Positions 35,896 to 48,591 of a DNA stretch of 64,000 nucleotides are shown here, piece by piece; position 1 is the first letter of the stretch; each line of letters starts with the position of its first letter. Origin of the DNA: Corallococcus sp. NCRR (GTDB taxonomy: Bacteria > Myxococcota > Myxococcia > Myxococcales > Myxococcaceae). Both the position numbers and the translations under genes were made by a program. The notes under the pieces are model-generated. The model saw nothing but the letters and a program-made list of their open reading frames with translations. It ran no database searches and was not told the origin of the DNA. The stretch is from contig NZ_CP114039.1 in the NCBI RefSeq assembly GCF_026965535.1, positions 8,227,461 to 8,291,460 of the forward strand, in the 5' to 3' direction.

Positions 35896-35994
35896 GGCAG
35901 CCGACCGAGCACCGCTCGGAAACTTCCCAAGCCTTGCGCCCGCCCGATAGGATGTGGCGGTTTTCACTGCACTTTTTGCTGGGTGAAGGGCTTC

Positions 35995-38900
35995 ATGGAG
36001 CGTCGCGTCCTCATCGTCGAAAGCCAGAACGACTTCGCACTCAGCATGGCCTCCGTGCTCAAGAGCGCGGGCTACAACACGGCCATGGCCACCACTGCGT
36101 CAGACGCGCAGCGGGAGCTGGAGAAGCGCCGACCCGACCTCGTCGTCGTGCGCGCGGAGCTGCCGGACCAGTCCGGCTTCGCCCTCTGTGGGCAGATCAA
36201 GAAGGGCAAGTGGGGCCAGAACCTCAAGGTCCTCCTGCTCTCCTCCGACTCCGGCGTGGAGGGTCTGAACAAACACCGTGAGACGCCGGCCGCCGCGGAC
36301 GGCTACCTCGTCATCCCGTTCGAGATGGGCGAGCTGGCCTCCATGAGCGCCGGCATCGTGCCGCCCGGCTCCGACGAGTCCGACGCGGACCTGGACGCCG
36401 CGCTCTCCGGCACCCCGCGCGAAGCCCCGCCCCCCATGCCCGGCGTGCGCACGGGCGCTCCGCCGAAGCTGCCCAAGCGCGAGCGCCGCAGCGCGATGAC
36501 GGACGAGGACAAGTCCTTCATGGACCGGGCCTTCTCCTCCATCGCGGACCGCAAGGCGGAGCTGCTCGCGGAGTCGCGTCAGCTCAAGCGCCCGCCCCCG
36601 CGCCGCGAGCTGATGGGCACGCCCGAGGGTAAGATCCAGATCCTCCGGGACGAATTGAAGACGCGCGAAGCCCAGCTCGCGCGCCTGTCGGAAATCTGGA
36701 GCGTCCGCGAGCGCGAGCTGCTCTCCGTCGAGGACCGCCTCCACGAGAAGGACGTGGAACTGCAGGGCCTGAAGATGCAGGTGGACGACCTGCTGCGGCG
36801 CTTCAACGACGCGCAGCAGTCCATCGTCCAGAAGGAGCGCGAGCACGGCGCCACCGTCGACGACCTGCTGCTCCAGAAGTTCTCCTCGGAGAAGGACCTC
36901 ATCGAGGTCGTCGCCTCCAAGGAGAAGGACATCAACGTCCTGCGCAAGGAGGTCAACCTCCGCGACGAGGAGCTGGCCCGGCGCGGCGCGGACCTGGAGT
37001 CCTGGCGCAACGAGTTCGACAAGCTGGAGAAGCACCTCGGCGTCGTCACGCTGGAGTTCGAGGTCAAGGAGCAGAAGCTCCAGGACACCGTCCGCGCCAA
37101 CGAGGCGGACATCCTCCAGCTGCGTGAGCGCGGCGATCAGTTCGAGTCCGAGCTGTCCCGCACCGTCAGCGAGCGCGACCAGCGCTACGCCGAGCTGGAC
37201 GGTGAGCTTCAGGCCCTCCAGGAGCGGCTGACCCAGACGGAGCAGGAGCGCGACGCCACCGTGCGCGGCCTGGAGGCCCGGGCCACCACGGCGGAGGAGC
37301 ACGCCAGCCGTTCGGACGCGGAGATTGAGCGCCTCAACGCCGAGCGTGCCGCGCTGGAGCAGCGCCTCACGCAGCAGGTGGCGGACCTCGAGTCCGACAT
37401 CTCGCGCGTCACCGGCGAGCGCGACCAACTCCGGCTGGACAAGGACGCGCTGGAGCAGGACCTCACGCAGCGCGTGGAGGAGCGGGACGGGAAGCTGTCC
37501 GCGCTCGACCGCGAGCTGCAGGAGACCATCGCCCGCAACGAGAACAGCGAGGCCGAGCTCAACGCCACCATCCAGCAGCACCGCGAGCGCATCGGTGAGC
37601 TGGAGGGCGAGGTCGAGGCCGTCAAGACGCACCTGGAGGACCGCGAGAACGAGCTGACCGCGGAGCTCCAGGCGCTGCAGCAGGCCAAGGACGCGCTGGA
37701 GCAGGACCTCACCAGCCAGTTGGAGGACCTGCGCGCGGCGAAGGACGCCCTGGAGGCGGACCTCAACGGCCAGATTCAAGCGCTCACCGAGCAGTTGGAC
37801 GCGGCCCAGCGCCAGGGCGAACAGCTCTCCGCGCGCGTGGCCTCGCTCGAGGACACCGTCTCCCAGCGCGACGGCACCATCGAGGGCCTGCAGACCGACG
37901 TCTCCGACCGCGACGCCCGCATCGCCGAGCTGACCGGCAACCTGGAGGCCACGAGCCAGCAGCTCTCCGAGACGCAGAGCACGCTCTCCAGCACGGAAGC
38001 CACCCTCGCGGAGACGCGCGGCGAGTTGGAGGCCACCAGCCAGCAGCTCTCCGAGACGCAGGGCACGCTCTCCAACACGGAGGCCACCCTCTCCGAGACG
38101 CGCGGCGAGCTGGAGGCCACGAGCCAGCAGCTCTCCGAGACGCAGACGCGCCTGGCGCAGACGGAGGAGACGCTCTCCACCACGCGCGGTGAGCTCGAAG
38201 CCACCAGCCAGACGCTGGCCACCACCGAGTCCACGCTCGCGCAGACGCAGGAAACGCTGGCGCGCACGGAGGCTACGCTCTCCGAGACGCAGGCCACGCT
38301 CTCCAGCACCGAAGGCACGCTGGCGGAGACGCGCGGCGAGCTGGAGGCCACCAGCCAGACCCTGGCGGACACCCAGTCCAAGCTCGCGCAGACGGAGGAG
38401 ACGCTCTCCACCACGCGCGGTGAGCTGGAGGCCACCAGCCAGACCCTGGCGGACACGCAGGCCACCCTCTCCAGCACGGAGGGCACGCTCGCGGAGACGC
38501 GCGGGGAGCTGGAGGCCACCAGCCAGACGCTGACGGACACGCAGGCGAAGCTCGCGCAGACGGAAGGGACGCTCGCGTCCACCCAGGGCGAGCTGGAGGC
38601 CACCAGCCAGACGCTGGCCACCACCGAGTCCACGCTCGCGCAGACGCAGGACACGCTGGCGCGCACGGAAGGAACGCTCGCCGACACGCAGGCCACCCTC
38701 TCCAGCACCGAAGGCACGCTCGCGGAGACGCGCGGCGAGCTGGAGGCCACCAGCCAGACGCTCACGCAGACCCAGGAGACCCTGGAGTCGACGCGCGCGG
38801 ACCTGGCGAAGGTCACCCAGCACCGCGACGAGCTGGACGCGGAGCTCAACGAGACGCGCGACATCCTCCAGGAGACCAACGGCCTCCTCGCCCGCACCAC

Positions 38901-40584
38901 CGAGGAGCGCGACGCGCGCATCGCGGAGCTGGCGGCGCTCAACGCGGCGAAGGACGCGCTGGAGCAGGACCTCACCGGCCAGATTGGCCAGCTGCGCGCG
39001 GACCTGTCGGAGACGCAGGGGCTCTACAACGCGGAGCGCACCGCCCACGCGGCGCTCGCGGAGGAGACCACCGCGCGCATCCACGCCCTCACCGGCGAGC
39101 GCGACAACCTCACCGCGGAGCTGAACGCCACCTCGCAGCAGCTGGCCGACACGCAGGGCCAGCTCGCCAGCACCCAGGACGCGCTGGCCCGCGAGGAGCA
39201 GGCCCACGCGCAGTCCCGCCAGGCCGCCGCCAGCGCCCAGGAGGAGCTTACGCGCCAGCTCACCGAGGCCCAGGCCAACGGCGAGGACCTGGCCGAACAG
39301 CTCATCGTCACCAAGCACGAGCTGGGCACGCGCGTGTCGGAAGTCACGCAGCTGTCCTCCACGCTCGCGCAGACGGAGAACGCGCGGCACCACCTGGAGG
39401 ACCGCCTCCAGACGCTCACCCACGAGTCGCAGCGCCGTGAGGAGCTCCTCCAGAACGAGGTCGACACCAAGGGCAAGGAGCTGTCGGACACGCTCCGCAA
39501 GCTCACGCACGTGACGCAGGAGAAGATGCGTCAGGCGGAGGTGCTCAACCGCGAGGTCACCACCCGCACGGAGCAGGTGAAGCAGCTGGAAGGCCAGCTG
39601 GAGCACCAGGCCTCCGAGGCGAAGAAGCAGGCGGACGCGCTCCACCAGCAGATCGCCAACGTCTCCGGCGAGCTGGACGGCGCGCGCAAGGCCATCGCGG
39701 ACCGCGACGGACAGCTCCAGCAGGCCGCGAACCAGCAGAAGAAGCTCACCAGCGAGCGCGACGGGCTGGCCGGACAGCTCCAGCAGGCCCAGGCCCAGGC
39801 GCAACAGCAGGCCCAGCAGGCCCAGGCCGCCGCCGCCGAGGCGAAGAAGCAGTCGGACAGCCTGGCCGCGAAGCTCGCCCAGGCCGAGCAGCGCATCGCC
39901 CAGCTCTCCCAGGAGGCCCAGAAGTTCGCCGCCGACACGGAGGCGAAGCTCAAGGACTCCCAGGCCCAGCTGCAGGCTCGCACCAAGAAGGCCCAGGACC
40001 TGGAGCTGGCGCTGGAGAACGCCCAGAGCACCCGCGCCCGCGCGGAGAAGGAGCTCAACGCTCGCGTCGCCGCGGCGGAGACCAAGGCCAACGAGGCGGC
40101 CGCCAGGCTCGCCACGGCGCAGAAGGACCGCAAGGACCTGGAGGCCCGTCAGGCCAAGGAGCTGGAGGACCTCAACGCCAAGCAGAAGGCGGAGCTCGAG
40201 CGCCGCGAGGCCATCAAGGCCCAGGAGGTCGCCCGCCTCCAGACGTCCGTCCAGGAGAAGAGCAAGGCGCTCAAGGTCGCCGAGTTGGAGCTGGCCCGCT
40301 ACAAGACCAAGGCCCCGGCCGCCGCCGCACCCGCCGCGAAGGCCAAGGCCACCGAGGAGGAGCACCTGGCCGCCACCGTCCAGGCGAACCCGGTCATCCC
40401 GGCCGCCGCCAAGCCCCCGGCCAAGGCCGCCGCCAAGCCCGCCGCGAAGAAGGCCGCCGCCGCGCCCACCCCCGTCCCCCTGGACGAGGAGGCCCCGGAG
40501 CGCACCATGGTGATGCAGCTGCCCACCGCCCCCGAAGCCGGTGAGGACGACTGGACGGCGCTCGTCGACGAGCTCGACAAGTAG
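35995..40584 (+). CDS. aglZ: AglZ-like gliding-motility protein: N-terminal pseudo-receiver domain plus a ~1400-aa coiled coil with near-identical 28-aa tandem repeats
   Basis: Start at MERRVLIVESQNDFALSMASVLKSAGY (an upstream GTG at 35983 is also in frame). The receiver-like fold lacks the canonical acidic pocket (ESQND and VRAELPDQSG replace DD...D), as in AglZ/FrzS pseudo-receivers. The remainder is heptad-repeat coiled coil. Size and architecture match AglZ (1395 aa in M. xanthus). Confidence 0.55.
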   Translation: MERRVLIVESQNDFALSMASVLKSAGYNTAMATTASDAQRELEKRRPDLVVVRAELPDQSGFALCGQIKKGKWGQNLKVLLLSSDSGVEGLNKHRETPAAADGYLVIPFEMGELASMSAGIVPPGSDESDADLDAALSGTPREAPPPMPGVRTGAPPKLPKRERRSAMTDEDKSFMDRAFSSIADRKAELLAESRQLKRPPPRRELMGTPEGKIQILRDELKTREAQLARLSEIWSVRERELLSVEDRLHEKDVELQGLKMQVDDLLRRFNDAQQSIVQKEREHGATVDDLLLQKFSSEKDLIEVVASKEKDINVLRKEVNLRDEELARRGADLESWRNEFDKLEKHLGVVTLEFEVKEQKLQDTVRANEADILQLRERGDQFESELSRTVSERDQRYAELDGELQALQERLTQTEQERDATVRGLEARATTAEEHASRSDAEIERLNAERAALEQRLTQQVADLESDISRVTGERDQLRLDKDALEQDLTQRVEERDGKLSALDRELQETIARNENSEAELNATIQQHRERIGELEGEVEAVKTHLEDRENELTAELQALQQAKDALEQDLTSQLEDLRAAKDALEADLNGQIQALTEQLDAAQRQGEQLSARVASLEDTVSQRDGTIEGLQTDVSDRDARIAELTGNLEATSQQLSETQSTLSSTEATLAETRGELEATSQQLSETQGTLSNTEATLSETRGELEATSQQLSETQTRLAQTEETLSTTRGELEATSQTLATTESTLAQTQETLARTEATLSETQATLSSTEGTLAETRGELEATSQTLADTQSKLAQTEETLSTTRGELEATSQTLADTQATLSSTEGTLAETRGELEATSQTLTDTQAKLAQTEGTLASTQGELEATSQTLATTESTLAQTQDTLARTEGTLADTQATLSSTEGTLAETRGELEATSQTLTQTQETLESTRADLAKVTQHRDELDAELNETRDILQETNGLLARTTEERDARIAELAALNAAKDALEQDLTGQIGQLRADLSETQGLYNAERTAHAALAEETTARIHALTGERDNLTAELNATSQQLADTQGQLASTQDALAREEQAHAQSRQAAASAQEELTRQLTEAQANGEDLAEQLIVTKHELGTRVSEVTQLSSTLAQTENARHHLEDRLQTLTHESQRREELLQNEVDTKGKELSDTLRKLTHVTQEKMRQAEVLNREVTTRTEQVKQLEGQLEHQASEAKKQADALHQQIANVSGELDGARKAIADRDGQLQQAANQQKKLTSERDGLAGQLQQAQAQAQQQAQQAQAAAAEAKKQSDSLAAKLAQAEQRIAQLSQEAQKFAADTEAKLKDSQAQLQARTKKAQDLELALENAQSTRARAEKELNARVAAAETKANEAAARLATAQKDRKDLEARQAKELEDLNAKQKAELERREAIKAQEVARLQTSVQEKSKALKVAELELARYKTKAPAAAAPAAKAKATEEEHLAATVQANPVIPAAAKPPAKAAAKPAAKKAAAAPTPVPLDEEAPERTMVMQLPTAPEAGEDDWTALVDELDK
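37930..38790. repeat. Intragenic tandem repeat, 84-bp (28-aa, 4-heptad) period, ~10 copies, high identity (ETRGELEATSQTLADTQATLSSTEGTLA)
   Basis: Seen directly in the translated ORF and the DNA. Copies are nearly identical, suggesting recent expansion or concerted evolution. Confidence 0.8.
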
Positions 40585-42145: not shown

Positions 42146-43096
42146 ATGAGCTCGACCTCATCCACCGTGCTGCGCGCCGAACACATCTGGCTCGATGGGA
42201 AGCTGATGAAATGGGACGAGGGCAACGTGCACGTGATGACGCACGCCCTCCACTACGGCCTGGGCGTCTTCGAGGGCATCCGCGCCTACAAGACCCATGA
42301 TGGCCGGCTCGCCGTCTTCCGGCTGCGCGAGCACATCCGCCGACTGCTCGACTCCGCGCACATCATCATGCTGCAGATGCCCTACAGCGAAGACGAGCTG
42401 GTGGAGGCCACGCTGGAGCTGCTGCGCAAGCAGAAGGCGCAGTTCGCCAACGGCGCGTACCTGCGCCCGGTGGCCTTCATGGGTGATGGCGCCATGGGCC
42501 TGGGCGCGGTGAACCCCACCCGCGTGGGCATCACCGCCTGGGACTGGGGCGCGTACCTGGGTGACAAGGGCATCAAGGAGGGCATCCGCGCCAAGGTCAG
42601 CTCGTTCACGCGCAACCACGTGAACGTGAACATGGTGCGCGGGAAGATCACCGGCCAGTACGTGAACTCCATCCTCGCCAAGCGCGAGGCGGTGATGGCC
42701 GGCTACGACGAGGCCATCCTCCTGGACGTCAGCGGCTTCGTCGCGGAGGCCTCCGGCGAGAACATCTTCATGGTGAACAAGAAGGGCATCATCAAGACCC
42801 CGCCCCTCTCCTCCCCCGTGCTGGACGGCATCACCCGGGACACGGTGCTGAAGCTCCTGCGCGACGCCGGCCACACCACCATCGAGGAGGTCACCGTCAC
42901 CCGTGACGCCCTCTACATCGCCAACGAGGTCTTCTTCACCGGCACCGCCGCGGAGATCACCCCCGTGCGCGAGGTGGACAACCGCCAGATTGGCGACGGC
43001 AAGCCCGGCCCCATCAGCAAGTTCGTCCAGGACATGTACTTCCGCGTCGTGCGGGGCCAGGAAGCCCGCTATGCGGACTGGCTGACCTACGTTTGA
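42146..43096 (+). CDS. ilvE: Branched-chain amino acid aminotransferase
   Basis: 316 aa with the class-IV PLP aminotransferase fold (EGIRAY, GTAAEITPVREVD). Confidence 0.88.
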   Translation: MSSTSSTVLRAEHIWLDGKLMKWDEGNVHVMTHALHYGLGVFEGIRAYKTHDGRLAVFRLREHIRRLLDSAHIIMLQMPYSEDELVEATLELLRKQKAQFANGAYLRPVAFMGDGAMGLGAVNPTRVGITAWDWGAYLGDKGIKEGIRAKVSSFTRNHVNVNMVRGKITGQYVNSILAKREAVMAGYDEAILLDVSGFVAEASGENIFMVNKKGIIKTPPLSSPVLDGITRDTVLKLLRDAGHTTIEEVTVTRDALYIANEVFFTGTAAEITPVREVDNRQIGDGKPGPISKFVQDMYFRVVRGQEARYADWLTYV

Positions 43097-43155: not shown

Positions 43156-44493
43156 ATGCCTCCCGCCGGCTACGCGTACGAAGACAATCCCTTCAAGCTG
43201 GAGAACCCGTCCGTCCTCGACATCGCTCCAGGTGAGCCGAAGTCGCTGGAGGACACGGGACTGAGGATGGGTCTGCTCGCGGACCTGGGCCTCAAGTTCC
43301 TCTACTACGCCGGCACCGGGACGGGCGTGGCCATCGCGGAGAGCATGTGCCTGCCCTGGTCCGGCGTGGTGGAGCACGTGGTGGACTTCCTCGCCGCGGA
43401 GAAGCTCGTGGACCTGCGCGGCGGCAAGGGCTTTGGCCGCGCGTCCGTGGAGTTCGCCCTCACGGAGAAGGGCCGCGAGTACGCGCGCGACGCCCTCACC
43501 CGCTCCACCTACGTGGGCCCGGCCCCCGTGCCCATTGAGCAGTACAACGCGCTCATCAGCAGCCAGACGGAGGAGACGCCCGTCGTGGGCCAGGAGGACC
43601 TGGTCGCCGCCCTGGGCCACCTCACCGTCTCCGCGGAGCTGATGGACAAGCTGGGCCCGGCGGTGAACTCCGGCCGCTCGCTCTTCCTCTACGGCCCGCC
43701 CGGCAACGGCAAGACGAGCCTGGCCGAGGCGATTTCCCACATGTTCGGCGGCGAGGTCTTCGTCCCGCACTGCCTGGAAATCGACAACCAGATCATCAAG
43801 GTCTTCGACCGCATCATCCACACGCCCGTGTCGCTGGAGGTGGGCCGCGACGCCAACGGCCGCCGGCAGACCTTCGAAATGGACAAGCGCTGGTCGCTCT
43901 GCCGGCGCCCCGCGGTGGTGGTGGGCGGCGAGCTGACGCTGGAGACCCTGGACCTCATCTACTCGGAGAGCACCCGCTTCTACGAGGCGCCGTTCCAGGT
44001 GAAGGCCAACGGGGGCATGCTCCTCATCGACGACTTCGGCCGCCAGAAGGTCCACCCCACGGACCTGCTCAACCGGTGGATCGTCCCCCTGGAGAAGCGG
44101 GTGGACTTCCTCACCCTGCACACCGGCAAGAAGTTCGAGATCCCCTTCGATCAGCTGCTCGTCTTCTCCACCAACCTGGACCCCAAGGAGCTGGTGGACG
44201 AGGCCTTCCTGCGGCGCATCAAGTACAAGATTGAAGTGGGCAATCCGGACGAGGAGTCCTACCGGGAGATCTTCCGCCGGGTCTGCGAAGCGGCGGGCAT
44301 CCCCTACGTGGACCAGGCCATCACCTACCTGGTGGAGCACTACTACAAGCCGCGCAGCATGGAGATGCGCTCCTGCCACCCCCGCGACCTCGTGTCGCTC
44401 ATCCGGGACGCCGCCCGATACCGGCAAATCCCGCCAGCCCTTTCAAAAGATCTGCTGGATCAGGCCTGCGAAGTGTTCCTGGTGAATCTGTAG
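43156..44493 (+). CDS. Uncharacterised P-loop AAA+ ATPase with ~170-aa N-terminal (winged-helix-like) domain; Walker B of hhhhDDFG type (DnaC/IstB-like)
   Basis: Walker A LFLYGPPGNGKTSLAEAI, Walker B GGMLLIDDFGRQ, sensor-1 LVFSTN, and C-terminal arginines (LRRIKYKIEV). Confidence 0.65.
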   Translation: MPPAGYAYEDNPFKLENPSVLDIAPGEPKSLEDTGLRMGLLADLGLKFLYYAGTGTGVAIAESMCLPWSGVVEHVVDFLAAEKLVDLRGGKGFGRASVEFALTEKGREYARDALTRSTYVGPAPVPIEQYNALISSQTEETPVVGQEDLVAALGHLTVSAELMDKLGPAVNSGRSLFLYGPPGNGKTSLAEAISHMFGGEVFVPHCLEIDNQIIKVFDRIIHTPVSLEVGRDANGRRQTFEMDKRWSLCRRPAVVVGGELTLETLDLIYSESTRFYEAPFQVKANGGMLLIDDFGRQKVHPTDLLNRWIVPLEKRVDFLTLHTGKKFEIPFDQLLVFSTNLDPKELVDEAFLRRIKYKIEVGNPDEESYREIFRRVCEAAGIPYVDQAITYLVEHYYKPRSMEMRSCHPRDLVSLIRDAARYRQIPPALSKDLLDQACEVFLVNL

Positions 44494-44613
44494 TCAGGTT
44501 TTATTTGTTCCAACCGCGCGGAATTTCTAGACTCTCCGTGCCGTTGTACCTCCCGGCGCAGCCTCTGGGAACCAGCGCCCGGGGCGGGCCGGGGCGAGAA
44601 GGAGCCGCAGTCC

Positions 44614-45453
44614 GTGAAGGAACGCTACCAGGACATCGACGAGAAGAACGAGCAGCTGCGCGAGTACCTTGAGATCTACAAGGGCAAGCCGCCTGCGCGT
44701 GAGTACCTCGACCGCTTCGAGATGTCGTGGATCTACCACGACGCCGCGCTCGAAGGCGTCGTGTACACGCACCAGGAGCTGATGGCCGCGCTCTTCCCGG
44801 AGCGCACCGCGGCCGAAGCCTCCATGATCCCGGTGGTGCTGGAGATCCGCAACCACAAGGCCGTGGCGGACTACATCCGCGAAGAGGCCGCGGGCGCGAA
44901 GAAGCAGTCCGCGCTCACGCTCACCACCATCAAGCGGATGCACGACCTCTTCCTGGGCAACACGCCGGAAGCGCTGGCCGAGCGTGCGCGCATGGAGCGC
45001 CGCGAGCGCACGGAGAAGGAGCTGGCCAAGGAGCGCGACCGCGCGGGGCTGCGCAAGGACATGCCCCTGCACCGCACCTACTTCCACGACATCACCCAGC
45101 CCGCGAAGATCCAGGCCCGGCTGGAGAAGCTCGTGGACCACACCGCCAGCGCGGAGTTCCGCGAGTTCCACCCGATCAAACAGGCGGCGGTGGTGCAGCA
45201 CGAGTTCCTGCAGATCTTCCCCTTCACCGAGCACAGCGGGAAGGTGGGGCGCATGTGCAGCAACCTCATCCTGCTGCGCAACGGCTACATGCCCGCGGTC
45301 ATCCACTCCATCGACCGGCAGCGCTACTACGAGTCCTTCCGCGCGCCCGTGGCCACGTTCCGCACGGTGCTGATGGACGCGATGGAGAACTCGTTGGACA
45401 ACGGCGTGAAGTACTTCCGCGACCTCGGCCGCAAGTACAAGACCGTCGAGTAG
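44614..45453 (+). CDS. Fic-fold (Fido) protein with degenerate active-site motif (pseudo-Fic)
   Basis: GTG start with a GAAGGAG RBS. The sequence aligns to the Fic core, but HPFx[DE]GNGR is replaced by FPFTEHSGKVGR: the catalytic His is Phe and the GNG is SGK. The flanking NLILLRNGYMPAVI block is conserved. Confidence 0.65.
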   Translation: MKERYQDIDEKNEQLREYLEIYKGKPPAREYLDRFEMSWIYHDAALEGVVYTHQELMAALFPERTAAEASMIPVVLEIRNHKAVADYIREEAAGAKKQSALTLTTIKRMHDLFLGNTPEALAERARMERRERTEKELAKERDRAGLRKDMPLHRTYFHDITQPAKIQARLEKLVDHTASAEFREFHPIKQAAVVQHEFLQIFPFTEHSGKVGRMCSNLILLRNGYMPAVIHSIDRQRYYESFRAPVATFRTVLMDAMENSLDNGVKYFRDLGRKYKTVE

Positions 45454-45480: not shown

Positions 45481-46314
45481 GTGCGCATCGGGGCTCATGA
45501 ATCCATCGCCGGAGGCGTGAGTCAGGCCTTCCAGCGAGCCGAAGCGCACGGCGCCCGCGCCCTGCAGATCTTCACGAAGAACGCGCGGGGCTGGAGCGCC
45601 CCCGCCCTGACGGACGCGGAGGCCCAGGCCTTCCGCGCCGAGGCCCGCCGCACGGGCCTCCCCGTCATCGCCCACGGCAGCTACCTGGTGAACCTGGCCG
45701 GTGAGGCGCCGGAGGCCCGTGAGAAGTCGCTCGCGTGCGTCGCCGAGGAGCTCACCCGCTGCGAGCGCCTGGGCATCCCGCTGCTCATCCTCCACCCCGG
45801 CTCCCACCCGGACGAAGCGCGGGGCCTGCACCTCATCGCCGAAGGGCTGGACGAGGTGCACCGCCGCTGCCCCGGCTACACCGCCCGCGTCTGCCTGGAG
45901 GTGACCGCGGGCCAGGGCAACGCGCTGGGCTGGCGCTTCGAGCACCTGGAGGAGCTGCTCTCACGCGTCGCGGACGAAGCGCGGCTGGCGGTGTGCCTGG
46001 ACACATGCCACCTCTTCGCGGCCGGGTACGACCTGCGGACGCCGAACGGCTACGCGGCGGTGATGGACGAGTGCGACCGGCGCGTGGGCCTGCACCGGGT
46101 GCGCGCCTTCCACCTCAACGATTGCAAGAAAGACCTGGGTTGCCGGGTAGACCGGCACGAGGAACCGGGCAAGGGGGCGATCGGACTGACGGCCTTCCGC
46201 TGCCTCATGAAGGACGCGCGGTTCGTCGACACCATTGGGGTGTTGGAAACACCCTTTCCGGAACGTTACGGGGAGAACATCCGACTTCTCGAATCCCTGT
46301 GCCGGAGGAAGTAA
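45481..46314 (+). CDS. nfo: Endonuclease IV (AP endonuclease, Xyl_isomerase-like TIM barrel)
   Basis: 277 aa starting at a GTG, MRIGAHESIAGG, with conserved His/Asp/Glu metal ligands (HGSYLVNL, LHPGSH, CLDTCH). Confidence 0.88.
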   Translation: MRIGAHESIAGGVSQAFQRAEAHGARALQIFTKNARGWSAPALTDAEAQAFRAEARRTGLPVIAHGSYLVNLAGEAPEAREKSLACVAEELTRCERLGIPLLILHPGSHPDEARGLHLIAEGLDEVHRRCPGYTARVCLEVTAGQGNALGWRFEHLEELLSRVADEARLAVCLDTCHLFAAGYDLRTPNGYAAVMDECDRRVGLHRVRAFHLNDCKKDLGCRVDRHEEPGKGAIGLTAFRCLMKDARFVDTIGVLETPFPERYGENIRLLESLCRRK

Positions 46315-46327
46315 AAGAAGAGTCCCC

Positions 46328-47449
46328 ATGCCTGTCACCCCATCCCTCCAAAGCCGCCGCGCCCAGTTGCCTGCCGGGAGCGAGCTCACGGAGCCTCCGC
46401 CAGCGCGGTTGGCTAAGCTGCCCGCCACCGACAAGCTGGCCCGCCTGCTCCAGGTGGCCAAGGGTCACCGCCGGGCGCTCATCCTCACGCACGACAACCC
46501 GGACCCCGATTCCATGGCGGCGGCGGTGTCGCTCGCGCATCTGCTGGAGCGCAAGGCCGGCCTCGAGGCCCACGTGGGCTACGGCGGCATCATCGGCCGG
46601 GCGGAGAACGTCGCCTTCGTGCGCGTGCTGAAGCTGCCGGTGTCGCACGTGTCGCAGATCGACTTCAGCCAGTACGACCTCTTCGGCCTGGTGGACACGC
46701 AGCCGCCGGTGAGGAACCACTCGCTGCCGGCGCGCTACCGCGCGGACCTGGTGGTGGACCACCACCCGCTGCGCGAGGAGAGCCTGCTGGCCCCCTTCGC
46801 GGACGTGGGCGGCGACTTCGGCGCCACCTCCACCATGCTGGTGGAGTACCTGCGGGCCGCCCGGCTGGAGCCGTCCGTGGAGATCGCCACCGCGCTCTTC
46901 TACGGCATCAAGGCGGACACGCGGGACCTGGGCCGTGAGACGACCCAGACGGACGTGGACAGCTACCTGTGGCTGTTCCCCCGCTGTGACAAGCAGCTCC
47001 TGGGACAGATTGAGCACCCGGAGCTGCCGGCGCGCTTCTTCCAGCTGTTCCACACGTCCATCGAGAAGGCGAAGGTCTACGGCACCGCCATCATCACCGA
47101 CCTGGAGGAGGTCTACTCCCCGGACCTGGTGGCGGAGGTCGCCGAGCGGATGATGTACCTGGAAGGGATGAAGTGGTCCCTGGCCTACGGGACGTACCGC
47201 AACCAGCTCTTCCTCAGCCTGCGCGTGAAGGACCGGCGCATGAACGCGGGCCGCCTCATCCGCGAGCTGTGCGAGGACCTGGGCGGCTCGTCCGGCGGCC
47301 ACGGCAGCATGGCGGGCGCGCGGCTGCCCCTGTCCGGCAGCGCGAACAAGCGCAAGGCGCTCAAGCGCGAGGTGGTGTCGCGCTTCCTCGAAGCCTTCGG
47401 CGTCTCCGAGGAGCGGCCGAAGTCGCTGCTGTCCGCGCAGGACACGTGA
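46328..47449 (+). CDS. nrnA: DHH-family phosphoesterase (NrnA-like oligoribonuclease / pAp phosphatase)
   Basis: Start at MPVTPSL with the DHH motifs (ILTHDNPDPDS, VVDHHP) and a DHHA1 C-terminal GGHxxAAG-like block (GGSSGGHGSMAGA). Confidence 0.8.
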   Translation: MPVTPSLQSRRAQLPAGSELTEPPPARLAKLPATDKLARLLQVAKGHRRALILTHDNPDPDSMAAAVSLAHLLERKAGLEAHVGYGGIIGRAENVAFVRVLKLPVSHVSQIDFSQYDLFGLVDTQPPVRNHSLPARYRADLVVDHHPLREESLLAPFADVGGDFGATSTMLVEYLRAARLEPSVEIATALFYGIKADTRDLGRETTQTDVDSYLWLFPRCDKQLLGQIEHPELPARFFQLFHTSIEKAKVYGTAIITDLEEVYSPDLVAEVAERMMYLEGMKWSLAYGTYRNQLFLSLRVKDRRMNAGRLIRELCEDLGGSSGGHGSMAGARLPLSGSANKRKALKREVVSRFLEAFGVSEERPKSLLSAQDT

Positions 47450-48591
47450 TCTACTGGGACCACAACGCCGCCGCGCCGGTGCGCGCGGAGGTGGGCGCGC
47501 TGCTCGCCCGGGCCTTCACGCAGGGCGGCTTCGGCAACGCGTCCAGCGTGCACGGTGGCGGGCGCGAGGCCCGGGCCCGGCTGGACGCGGCGCGAGCGAA
47601 GGTGGCGCGCGTCCTGGGCTGCGAGCCGAAGGAGATCACCTTCACCGCGTCGGGCAGCGAAGCAGATGCGCTCGCGCTGGTGGGGGCGTACGCGGCCCGC
47701 CCGGTGAAGGACCGCCGCCGCGTGGTGTCCACCACGGTGGAGCACCCGTCGGCGCTGGGCGCGCTCGCGCAGTTGGAGAAGGACGGCGCCCAGGTGGTGC
47801 GGCTGTCCCCTGACGCCCATGGCCGGGTGCCACTCGAGTCCGTGCTGGAGGCGCTCACGCCGGACACCGCGCTGTGCTCGCTGATGTGGGCCAACAACGA
47901 GACGGGCGTGCTCCAGCCGGTGGCGGAGACCGCGCGCGCCTGCCGTCAGCGCGGCATCCTCTTCCATACGGACGCCGTACAGGCCGCGGGCAAGGTGCCT
48001 CTCACCTTGCGCGAAGTGGACGCGGACCTGCTCTCGCTCTCCGCGCACAAGTTCGGCGGCCCCCAGGGCGTGGGCGTGCTCGTGGTGCGCAAGGGCGTGG
48101 ACGTGCGGGCGCTGACGCCCGGACACCAGGAGGGAGGCCGGCGCGGAGGCACGCAGAACGTGCCCTACGCCGAGGCCCTGGCCCTGGCCCTGGAGCTGGC
48201 CGCCGCGGAGCAGGCCACCACCGCCGAGAGGGTGGCGGACCTGCGCGACACCTTCGAACAGCAGGTGCTCCAGCGGCTGCCCGGGGTGACGGTGAACGGC
48301 GCGGGCGCGCCCCGGGTGCCCAACACCAGCAACCTGCGCTTCGACGGCGTGGAGGGCGAAGCGCTGTTGATGGCGCTGGACCTGGAGGACATCCGCGTGT
48401 CCTCCGGAGCGGCCTGCGCGTCCGGCACGCTGTCCCCATCCCACGTGCTGCGCGCCATGGGCCTCTCCCCCACCGAGGCGCGCGGAAGCCTGCGCTTCAG
48501 CCTGGGCCCCGGCACCACCGGCGCGGAGGTCTCCCGCGTCGTGGACGCGCTGTGCACGCACGTGCCCCGGGTGCGCGCCCTCGGAGGCTGA
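47446..48591 (+). CDS. Cysteine desulfurase (IscS/NifS family)
   Basis: GTG start overlapping the nrnA stop (GTGA). Motifs include VIYWDHNAAAPV, SAHKFGGPQGVG (PLP lysine) and the SSGAACAS catalytic-Cys loop. Confidence 0.85.
   Translation: MIYWDHNAAAPVRAEVGALLARAFTQGGFGNASSVHGGGREARARLDAARAKVARVLGCEPKEITFTASGSEADALALVGAYAARPVKDRRRVVSTTVEHPSALGALAQLEKDGAQVVRLSPDAHGRVPLESVLEALTPDTALCSLMWANNETGVLQPVAETARACRQRGILFHTDAVQAAGKVPLTLREVDADLLSLSAHKFGGPQGVGVLVVRKGVDVRALTPGHQEGGRRGGTQNVPYAEALALALELAAAEQATTAERVADLRDTFEQQVLQRLPGVTVNGAGAPRVPNTSNLRFDGVEGEALLMALDLEDIRVSSGAACASGTLSPSHVLRAMGLSPTEARGSLRFSLGPGTTGAEVSRVVDALCTHVPRVRALGG

Follow-up and report, generated by a model that had tools for sequence, protein, structure and literature searches.

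Do a winged-helix AAA+ ATPase and a Fic protein that has lost its catalytic histidine, encoded side by side in a myxobacterium, form a two-gene system? The question comes from an earlier note on a 64,000-nucleotide stretch of Corallococcus sp. NCRR (contig NZ_CP114039.1, positions 8,227,461 to 8,291,460; the whole stretch is called the window here), in which the two genes were described as a pair. The first open reading frame (ORF), at 43156-44493 on the plus strand with an ATG start, encodes a 445-residue ATPase with 100% identity to that of C. coralloides KYC2213; the second, at 44614-45453 on the plus strand with a GTG start, encodes a 279-residue Fic-like protein with 99% identity to that of C. 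exercitus. Long antisense ORFs overlap both genes and are the usual shadows in a 70% GC genome (70.3% GC for the window), and homology favors the plus-strand genes. Our results suggest that the ATPase and the Fic-like protein most likely represent a conserved neighborhood rather than a functional unit, because the family of the latter travels with base-excision-repair nucleases and not with the ATPase. With about even confidence, we favor a reading in which the two are separable chromosomal genes and the Fic-like protein is a non-catalytic binding module tied to base-excision repair.

The Fic fold proposed for the downstream protein was supported by both profile and structure searches. PF02661 matched it with 43.7 bits (gathering score 24; E = 5.1e-11), covering profile positions 2-93 of 93, and its best solved relative by sequence was human FICD (phmmer against the PDB, E = 2.5e-13). 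An AlphaFold2 (AF2) model built from a 55-sequence alignment had a predicted local distance difference test score (pLDDT) of 92.8 and a predicted template modeling score (pTM) of 0.90. Foldseek ranked FICD first for this model (TM 0.78 over ~275 columns, E = 1.7e-10), with other Fic structures next and a total of 48 PDB Fic chains matching at E<=1e-3. In the phmmer alignment, HPFIDGNGRTSR of FICD pairs with FPFTEHSGKVGR, which stands where enzymes have HPFx[D/E]GNGRxxR; the motif NLILLRNGYMPAVI is also present in the window. The protein thus lacks the catalytic-Fic signature HxFx[D/E]GN[G/K]R with its invariant His, as the earlier note had recognized. Because the catalytic His, the Asn, and the first Arg of the GNGR loop are all missing, loss of AMPylation-type chemistry, also anticipated in that note, is a reasonable prediction from sequence.

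FICD/HYPE, the class II AMPylase/deAMPylase of BiP (PDB 4u04, 6i7g), is the best match by both sequence and fold. Both proteins have the HP...A helix, Pro and Gly in the loop, the last Arg, and an NLIL..GYPP..I block. The N-terminal in-cis helix that carries the inhibitory Glu of FICD (IYHTVAIEGN) has a putative counterpart in the window protein (IYHDAALEGV). The DAALEG motif aligns with TVAIEG of FICD (DAALEGV versus TVAIEGN), and the class II motif is [S/T]xxxE[G/N]; across 55 aligned family members an acidic residue (D or E) takes the place of S/T at the first position, position 47 holds 46 E and 9 D, and G48 is found in 55/55. Unlike FICD, the window protein has no transmembrane or TPR region and is only 279 residues long, its catalytic His is Phe, GNG reads HSG, and the first Arg is Lys; in addition, the acidic metal ligand is not conserved in its family, which has a flap of its own, YRKDxPLHRxYFHE. 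Just before this flap lies a highly charged insertion, PEALAERARMERRERTEKELAKERDRAG (window 44956-45048, residues ~115 to 145), which occurs among the 55 members only in the query, in P0243, and, with another sequence, in P0253, and which is the least confident region of the model (pLDDT 64 to 78).

We asked whether the rewritten loop is peculiar to this protein or a property of a family. When 1.84 billion cluster representatives were searched, 2232 relatives passed E<=1e-3, of which 381 also passed E<=1e-10. The loop pattern [FYW]-P-[FWY]-x-x-x-[S/T]-G-[K/R]-[VIL]-[AG]-R was present in essentially all of the best 150 relatives covering the region, amounting to ~130 representatives, and canonical HPFxDGNGR proteins first turned up near E~1e-20. 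Counts by column were taken from the 55 diverse members, which are 23 to 76% identical to the query:

Position 202: F37, Y13, W4, A1; His 0
Position 203: P, invariant
Position 206 (the Mg-binding acidic residue in enzymes): variable, E18, K11, D4, R4, others
Position 208: S39, T9, N5
Position 209: G in 54/55
Position 210: K27, R13
Position 213: R, invariant

The family also keeps WIYHDxALEG, the flap (with R147 and Y156 invariant), DRQRYY, and an invariant R235, and H158 is found in 53/55 members. As judged from these alignments, the His substitution is fixed throughout a large and old family, and purifying selection acting on members whose active-site loop has been rewritten is what marks a pseudoenzyme or a repurposed site. 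A search started from a long-form member found the family in Sorangium, Chondromyces, Minicystis, and Polyangiaceae, in addition to Myxococcaceae and Archangiaceae, and it therefore spans Myxococcia and Polyangia. No model for it was found in NCBIfam, and none of the five motif classes of a 2015 Fic/Doc survey has F/Y in place of H (PMC4454073). The annotation "Fic family protein / protein adenylyltransferase" is probably misleading for its members.

Some members are longer than the window protein. In the 89 long forms the extra N-terminal tail has a median of 168 residues, is 52% Lys+Ala+Pro, and has an isoelectric point of 11.6; a Lys/Ala/Pro-rich, high-pI composition is typical of histone-H1-like DNA-binding tails. 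The long forms of Polyangia (P0275-P0345, P0395-P0513) reach about 350 to 690 residues with such Lys/Ala/Pro-rich tails, and some of them also have Glu/Arg/Lys-rich, coiled-coil-like repeats. Among 31 long homologues (340 to 790 residues) searched for a fusion to the ATPase, none was found, the extra length being mostly Lys/Ala/Pro-rich low-complexity sequence. P0251 (649 residues) joins Fic, nfo, and DHH through frameshifted read-through and is an assembly or gene-calling artifact, not a fusion.

Research on Fic proteins has dealt almost exclusively with their enzymatic roles, as AMPylases, phosphocholine transferases, and kinases. In this family the catalytic His has apparently been replaced over the whole history of the phylum, with the fold, the Glu-Arg pair, and the loop/flap signature still under selection; if this is true, the family would provide a clean natural Fic pseudoenzyme that serves core physiology and not virulence. 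Precedent for a Fic fold as a binding module comes from the FIC domain of Bartonella BepC: its motif is non-canonical, no activity has been detected, and it works by binding GEF-H1 (PMC8401265). Unlike the window family, which is vertically inherited, chromosomal, phylum-wide, and single-domain or basic-tailed, BepC and other degenerate Beps are lineage-specific, secreted FIC-OB-BID effectors derived from a FicTA module. Likewise, Doc clade D2 (Qx[F/Y]x[D/E][G/V]NKR), in which the His is replaced, and AvrB, in which the motif is absent, have been argued to have a function other than AMPylation (Khater & Mohanty 2015, PMC4454073). The window family resembles them as a conserved clade without the catalytic His and differs from their Doc sub-fold without a flap, their Gln replacement, and their toxin/effector biology.

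We then considered whether the two genes keep company across relatives. The ATPase-anchored set comprised the best 80 of 210 species-representative genomes (Myxococcaceae and Archangiaceae) and is biased to close relatives; the Fic-anchored set comprised 80 metagenome contigs retrieved with a 13-sequence alignment, unlabeled and without taxonomy, some of them near-duplicates. Seen from the ATPase, the Fic gene follows in 58/74 loci with enough downstream sequence, and ilvE directly precedes in 65/76 loci. The remaining 16/74 loci, with ATPases 77 to 81% identical, have GNAT-(PilZ)-cNMP-binding-PilT/PilU genes downstream (cNMP, cyclic nucleoside monophosphate) and lack Fic, nfo, and DHH. Seen from the Fic gene, the ATPase is upstream in only 4/41 metagenome contigs, ilvE abuts the Fic gene with the ATPase missing in 17/41, and the ATPase was not seen in any of eight more distant Fic contexts. 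Broken down by identity of the Fic protein to that of the window, the contigs show the following:

Fic at >=75% identity: ATPase upstream in 1/1, nfo downstream in 2/5, DHH within 1.6 kb in 4/5
Fic at 60 to 75% identity: ATPase upstream in 3/22, nfo downstream in 20/23, DHH within 1.6 kb in 22/23
Fic at <50% identity: ATPase upstream in 0/18, nfo downstream in 20/21, DHH within 1.6 kb in 21/21

In many relatives, then, the locus has either gene alone, which argues against the gene-pair system of the earlier note, and the combination of ATPase and degenerate Fic should not be cataloged as a new two-gene system.

In the window itself, a receiver and coiled-coil protein (1533 residues), a MoxR-like AAA_5 ATPase, and an ilvE-type gene precede the ATPase and Fic-like genes, which are followed by nfo, a DHH/DHHA1 gene, and a NifS/IscS gene. 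The features of this syntenic housekeeping neighborhood are as follows:

42146-43096, plus strand: ilvE-type class IV aminotransferase (PF01063), the conserved upstream neighbor
43156-44493, plus strand: ATPase of 445 residues, a MarR-like winged helix plus a divergent AAA+ domain, uncharacterized family (ORF and homologues)
43243-43500, plus strand: N-terminal winged-helix domain of the ATPase, residues ~30 to 115 (AF2 model and Foldseek)
43693-43716, plus strand: Walker A, GPPGNGKT, residues 180-187 (sequence)
44020-44040, plus strand: Walker B, LLIDDFG, residues 289-295 (sequence)
44505-44533, plus strand: sigma-70-like promoter-like element, TTGTTC-N17-TAGACT (cross-genus comparison)
44598-44604, plus strand: Shine-Dalgarno sequence GAAGGAG, 9 nt before the GTG of the Fic-like gene (sequence)
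44614-45453, plus strand: predicted non-catalytic (pseudo-)Fic, FICD-like, 279 residues (PF02661, AF2, FICD match)
44740-44757, plus strand: DAALEG inhibitory-helix-like motif, residues 43-48 (FICD alignment)
45217-45252, plus strand: degenerate Fic loop FPFTEHSGKVGR, residues 202-213, followed by SNLILLRNGYMPAVIHS (sequence)
45481-46314, plus strand: nfo, endonuclease IV (TIGR00587, 271 bits against a cut-off of 130; PF01261)
46325-47449, plus strand: DHH/DHHA1 phosphoesterase, start codon approximate (PF01368, PF02272)
47449-48591, plus strand: NifS/IscS-type cysteine desulfurase, start approximate, the end of the conserved block (TIGR03402, 415 bits, below the equivalog cut-off of 531; PF00266)

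On its downstream side the pseudo-Fic gene has stable partners, nfo-DHH-nifS in Myxococcia and nth in four Polyangia contexts. Endonuclease IV (nfo) and endonuclease III (nth) are non-homologous enzymes of the same pathway, the processing of abasic (AP) sites in base-excision repair. In the window, nfo starts 27 bp past the Fic stop codon, and the two genes probably share an operon. The gene immediately after Fic is a full-length nfo in 42/52 metagenome contigs and 19/58 genomes, with a median gap of 7 bp in the genomes, and DHH follows within 1.6 kb in 47/49 Fic-anchored contigs with enough sequence. Fragments of nfo persist ~100 to 300 bp after the Fic gene in other relatives (L001, L005, L007-L012, L028-L030, L036, L038, L043, L057), and nfo is absent in all Myxococcus spp. 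sampled (L015-L025) and intact in the window. These patterns indicate that endonuclease IV has been lost repeatedly at a conserved locus. In four Polyangia contexts, Sorangium sp. So ce124 included, nth instead follows the Fic gene by 13 to 121 bp (L170 8001-10040; L171 5001-6761; L173 6001-8104; and the TnCSekiJ ENA contig); TIGR01083, with a cut-off of 212 bits, scored 236 and 248 bits in L170 and L171, the two contexts that were scanned, and the flanks of L170 are unlike those of the other three. In L172 (3030-5870), the Fic gene has as its divergent neighbor a bona fide recN (TIGR00634, 525 bits). Taken together, the nfo and nth neighbors, recN, and the histone-H1-like tails suggest a DNA-repair-associated role for the pseudo-Fic family. 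A literature search for a link between Fic proteins and base-excision repair found nothing specific.

The sequence between the two genes also bears on whether they are expressed as a unit. The earlier note had described the whole 120-bp spacer as AT-rich, which applies only to its first half: the spacer as a whole is 65% GC, an unremarkable value at the 15th percentile of 120-bp windows in this stretch. Its first 60 bp (44494-44553) are 50% GC and fall in the lowest 0.25% of windows of that size, and the other 60 bp are 80% GC. Comparison across genera revealed in the AT-rich half a consensus TTG(T/A)(C/T)C-N17-TA(G/C)A(A/C)T with the core GGAATTTCTA, which was found in 63/73 ATPase-Fic spacers and also in L087, where ilvE and not the ATPase is upstream. 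The strings TTTTATTTGTTCC and TTTCTAGA quoted in the earlier note correspond to the -35 and -10 regions of this promoter-like element. A built-in strict promoter scan of the spacer gave no match, and the element was seen only by cross-genus comparison; from its sequence it looks like a sigma-70-type promoter of the Fic gene. The strong GAAGGAG ribosome-binding site is indeed present and conserved across genera, with the surrounding GAAGGAGC preserved in Corallococcus, Myxococcus, Archangium, Cystobacter, and Hyalangium loci. The ~70-nt leader of the Fic gene showed no conserved RNA structure (RNAalifold: three invariant pairs and no covariation). This leader (44541-44613) and its counterparts in L001-L120 contain lineage-specific GC-rich palindromes, as well as a conserved CCGTTGT/GGGTTTC box directly after the -10 region.

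For the ATPase, more than 100 orthologues at 76 to 97% identity were recovered. The GPPGNGKT Walker A and LLIDDFG Walker B motifs that the earlier note had read in it are both present, ~100 residues apart, and these motifs, VFSTN (sensor 1), and LRRIKYK (Arg finger) are invariant in 41 orthologues, which identifies the protein as an AAA+ ATPase. Profile searches were less decisive: no family-specific Pfam or NCBIfam model matched, and PF00004 scored 27.4 bits against 21.2, a weak match confined to residues 177-217 around Walker A. The DnaC/IstB-like identity suggested previously did not survive, since PF01695 (E = 0.33; 10.8 bits against 24.1, Walker A only) and NF038214 (14.6 bits against 200) both fell below their cut-offs. 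In PDB searches, alignments with classic-clade AAA proteins, such as spastin, covered the Walker A region and that of sensor 1 and the Arg finger (VFSTN...DEAFLRRIKYKIEV). From spastin, p97, and other members of that clade the window ATPase differs in having a MarR-like winged helix-turn-helix (wHTH) domain and a ~90-residue insert between Walker A and Walker B. The AF2 model of this protein was poor overall (pLDDT 51.6, with the AAA core below 50), its homologues being 75 to 97% identical and the alignment shallow, and is usable for the wHTH and lid domains. Residues 30-115 were modeled with pLDDT 76 to 88 in the order H-S-H-H-S-S, and their top Foldseek matches were MarR-family regulators (E = 5e-5 to 1e-3, probability 1.00). 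No sequence-profile match was found for this domain; a MarR-like N-terminal winged helix, in line with the domain described earlier, is supported at the level of the modeled fold, and DNA binding by it is putative.

Full-length homologues of the ATPase at 36 to 44% identity (93 to 96% coverage) are encoded on megaplasmids of Rhizobium, Sinorhizobium, Burkholderia, Photobacterium, and Salipiger. Those of Rhizobium, Salipiger, Burkholderia, and Photobacterium lie in or next to Tad loci and share the DD Walker B. In R. etli p42e (L166 6941-8245), the AAA gene, with Walker B VFIIDDFG, is the last in a Tad operon ordered TadE/G, CpaE-like response regulator, L,D-transpeptidase, CpaF, TadB, TadC, AAA gene. 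The Salipiger homologue is convergent with the same Tad operon, and in B. cenocepacia and Photobacterium CpaE and CpaF lie 5 to 7 kb from the homologue. A Fic gene is not annotated in the two annotated loci (R. etli and Salipiger). Unlike these loci, the window contains no Tad gene. The Tad-linked homologues (L166-L169; Alpha-, Beta-, and Gammaproteobacteria) are annotated simply as "AAA family ATPase" or "hypothetical", a literature search for a Tad-associated wHTH-AAA protein found nothing specific, and the homologue may be an unrecognized Tad component or regulator. Among the myxobacteria, the GNAT-(PilZ)-cNMP-PilT context was found in 16 metagenome-assembled genomes (L049, L055, L056, L061, L063, L067, L068, L070-L075, L077-L079), with a further context of this type in L081 (8001-12742); the last gene encodes a PilT/PilU-family ATPase (TIGR01420, 435 bits). 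The Tad neighbors and the PilZ-cNMP-PilT context of 16 myxobacterial genomes both hint at a tie between the ATPase and type IV filament biology, which is a lead only.

A toxin-antitoxin or defense setting had also been suggested for the locus. As an anti-phage system it was rejected, the NCBIfam models SoFic (14 bits against 550) and IteA (39.6 against 510) scoring far below their cut-offs. PADLOC matches were weak and partial (IetA, 41.8 bits, E = 2e-11; SoFic, 40.4 bits; PDC-S04, 56.7 bits, E = 5e-16) and are consistent with generic AAA/Fic similarity, and no protease partner such as IetS was seen among the flanking genes, which are ilvE, the Fic gene, and nfo-DHH-nifS. A FicTA or Doc-Phd module was likewise rejected, given that the neighbors are a 445-residue ATPase and nfo, that an inhibitory-type helix is present in cis, and that the locus is syntenic across genera; no small antitoxin-like ORF was found at the locus. 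Plasmid and phage collections held no close relative of the Fic protein, the best matches being canonical Fic proteins at 23 to 35% identity, and the phage collection held no relative of the ATPase. With models below cut-off, no close plasmid or phage relatives of the Fic protein, and vertical synteny, the suggestion of such a setting can be set aside.

In the reading that we favor, the first gene encodes a divergent AAA+ ATPase, from an uncharacterized family, that bears a predicted MarR-like winged helix, and the second would head a Fic-nfo-DHH-nifS block whose transcription probably starts at a sigma-70-type promoter of its own within the AT-rich part of the spacer. The product of the second gene has a FICD-like fold with a rewritten loop, in which His has become Phe/Tyr/Trp, Asn has become Ser/Thr, and the first Arg is mostly Lys/Arg; the metal-binding acidic residue is not conserved, and Pro and Gly of the loop, the last Arg, and the Glu of the inhibitory-type helix are kept. 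Such a protein is most likely unable to AMPylate, and we infer that it serves as a ligand- or protein-binding module. Because the family is conserved in both myxobacterial classes, stands next to nfo or nth, and has basic tails in Polyangia, it may act in base-excision or AP-site repair, for example by binding a repair nuclease or a processed DNA end. Its recurrent place beside two non-homologous AP-site nucleases yields a directly testable hypothesis for its role. A bolder version, which we regard as rather unlikely, is that the dead FICD-like protein is an unrecognized base-excision-repair factor across the phylum, its loop reading a repair intermediate (5'-AMP, 3'-phosphate, or deoxyribose phosphate) or docking or regulating endonuclease IV/III and its H1-like tail tethering it to the nucleoid in Polyangia, and that, separately, the wHTH-AAA+ ATPase is a new Tad/type IV filament component or regulator.

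Several points weigh against the separable, repair-linked reading. The link to repair is drawn from gene neighborhood only; of 58 cultured-type genomes, 19 have a full-length nfo at this site, 16 have a fragment, and 23 have none; and five distant Fic contexts, the one with the divergent recN among them, have no adjacent base-excision-repair nuclease. The near-duplicates among the Fic-anchored contigs mean that counts from that set are not independent. A terminator scan after the ATPase found none, so read-through into the Fic gene is possible. Adjacency of the two genes is old, extending over 58/74 genomes and at least eight genera, and a functional tie is conceivable; four short contigs with Fic proteins only 44 to 48% identical (L125, L133, L137, L145) have an ATPase fragment upstream. 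From these fragments beside divergent Fic proteins it follows that the arrangement ilvE-ATPase-Fic-nfo-DHH-nifS is probably ancestral, the ATPase and the Fic block having later split repeatedly. Lastly, a loop as strongly conserved as S-G-K...R, together with the YRKDxPLHRxYFHE flap, could mean new chemistry.

The same observations lend themselves to other explanations. The ATPase and the pseudo-Fic might be a functional two-gene module, in which the ATPase would, for example, bind the spacer or remodel the Fic protein, possibly in a defense- or toxin-antitoxin-like manner; in its favor are the shared strand and ~120-bp distance, the adjacency in 58/74 genomes and in the four contigs with very divergent Fic proteins, the lack of a detected terminator, and the weak PADLOC matches to IetA and PDC-S04. 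Such a module is nevertheless improbable, given that loss or relocation has occurred independently in both directions, that the promoter-like element stays when ilvE replaces the ATPase upstream, that long homologues include no ATPase-Fic fusion, and that the proteobacterial ATPase homologues sit in Tad loci, two of which are annotated and show no Fic gene; the IteA and SoFic scores, the housekeeping synteny of the setting, and the finding of no close plasmid or phage relative of the Fic protein and no phage match to the ATPase tell against it as well. Equally doubtful, in our judgment, is that the Fic-like protein has kept enzymatic activity of a changed kind, in which a loop of Ser208, Lys210, and Arg213 and the flap residues H153 and H158 replace the His. 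Loop and flap are under strong purifying selection (R147, Y156, P203, R213, and R235 invariant; H158 in 53/55), an IbpA His-to-Ala mutant retains residual activity, and conserved non-canonical clades have been argued to have new functions (PMC4454073 for both). However, the canonical position offers no general base, the Mg-binding acidic position 206 is not conserved, and the inhibitory Glu and its Arg partner are kept, suggesting a permanently occluded site; H42, H158, and H186 are FICD-like features in the FICD alignment as well and hence no new catalytic candidates. Pure inherited synteny is a somewhat stronger contender, unlikely all the same: the pseudo-Fic would have a role unrelated to both the ATPase and repair, such as binding of an Hsp70-type chaperone, and nfo and nth would be coincidental. 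The target of its closest characterized relative, FICD, is the Hsp70 BiP, nfo is often lost at the site, several distant contexts have unrelated neighbors, and the block includes the metabolically unrelated ilvE and nifS. Yet two non-homologous nucleases of one pathway in the same downstream slot in two classes are hard to obtain by chance, with, by a rough estimate, a dozen base-excision-repair genes among about 10,000; furthermore, the tails in Polyangia are of a basic, DNA-binding type, and the TPR domain with which FICD binds BiP is absent.

Upstream of the conserved block, the 1533-residue protein (window 35983-40584) combines a response-regulator receiver with a long coiled coil and contains many near-identical repeats of the type ELEATSQ(Q/T)L..TQ..L..TE.TL. 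We presume that it resembles the AglZ/FrzS class of myxobacterial motility regulators.

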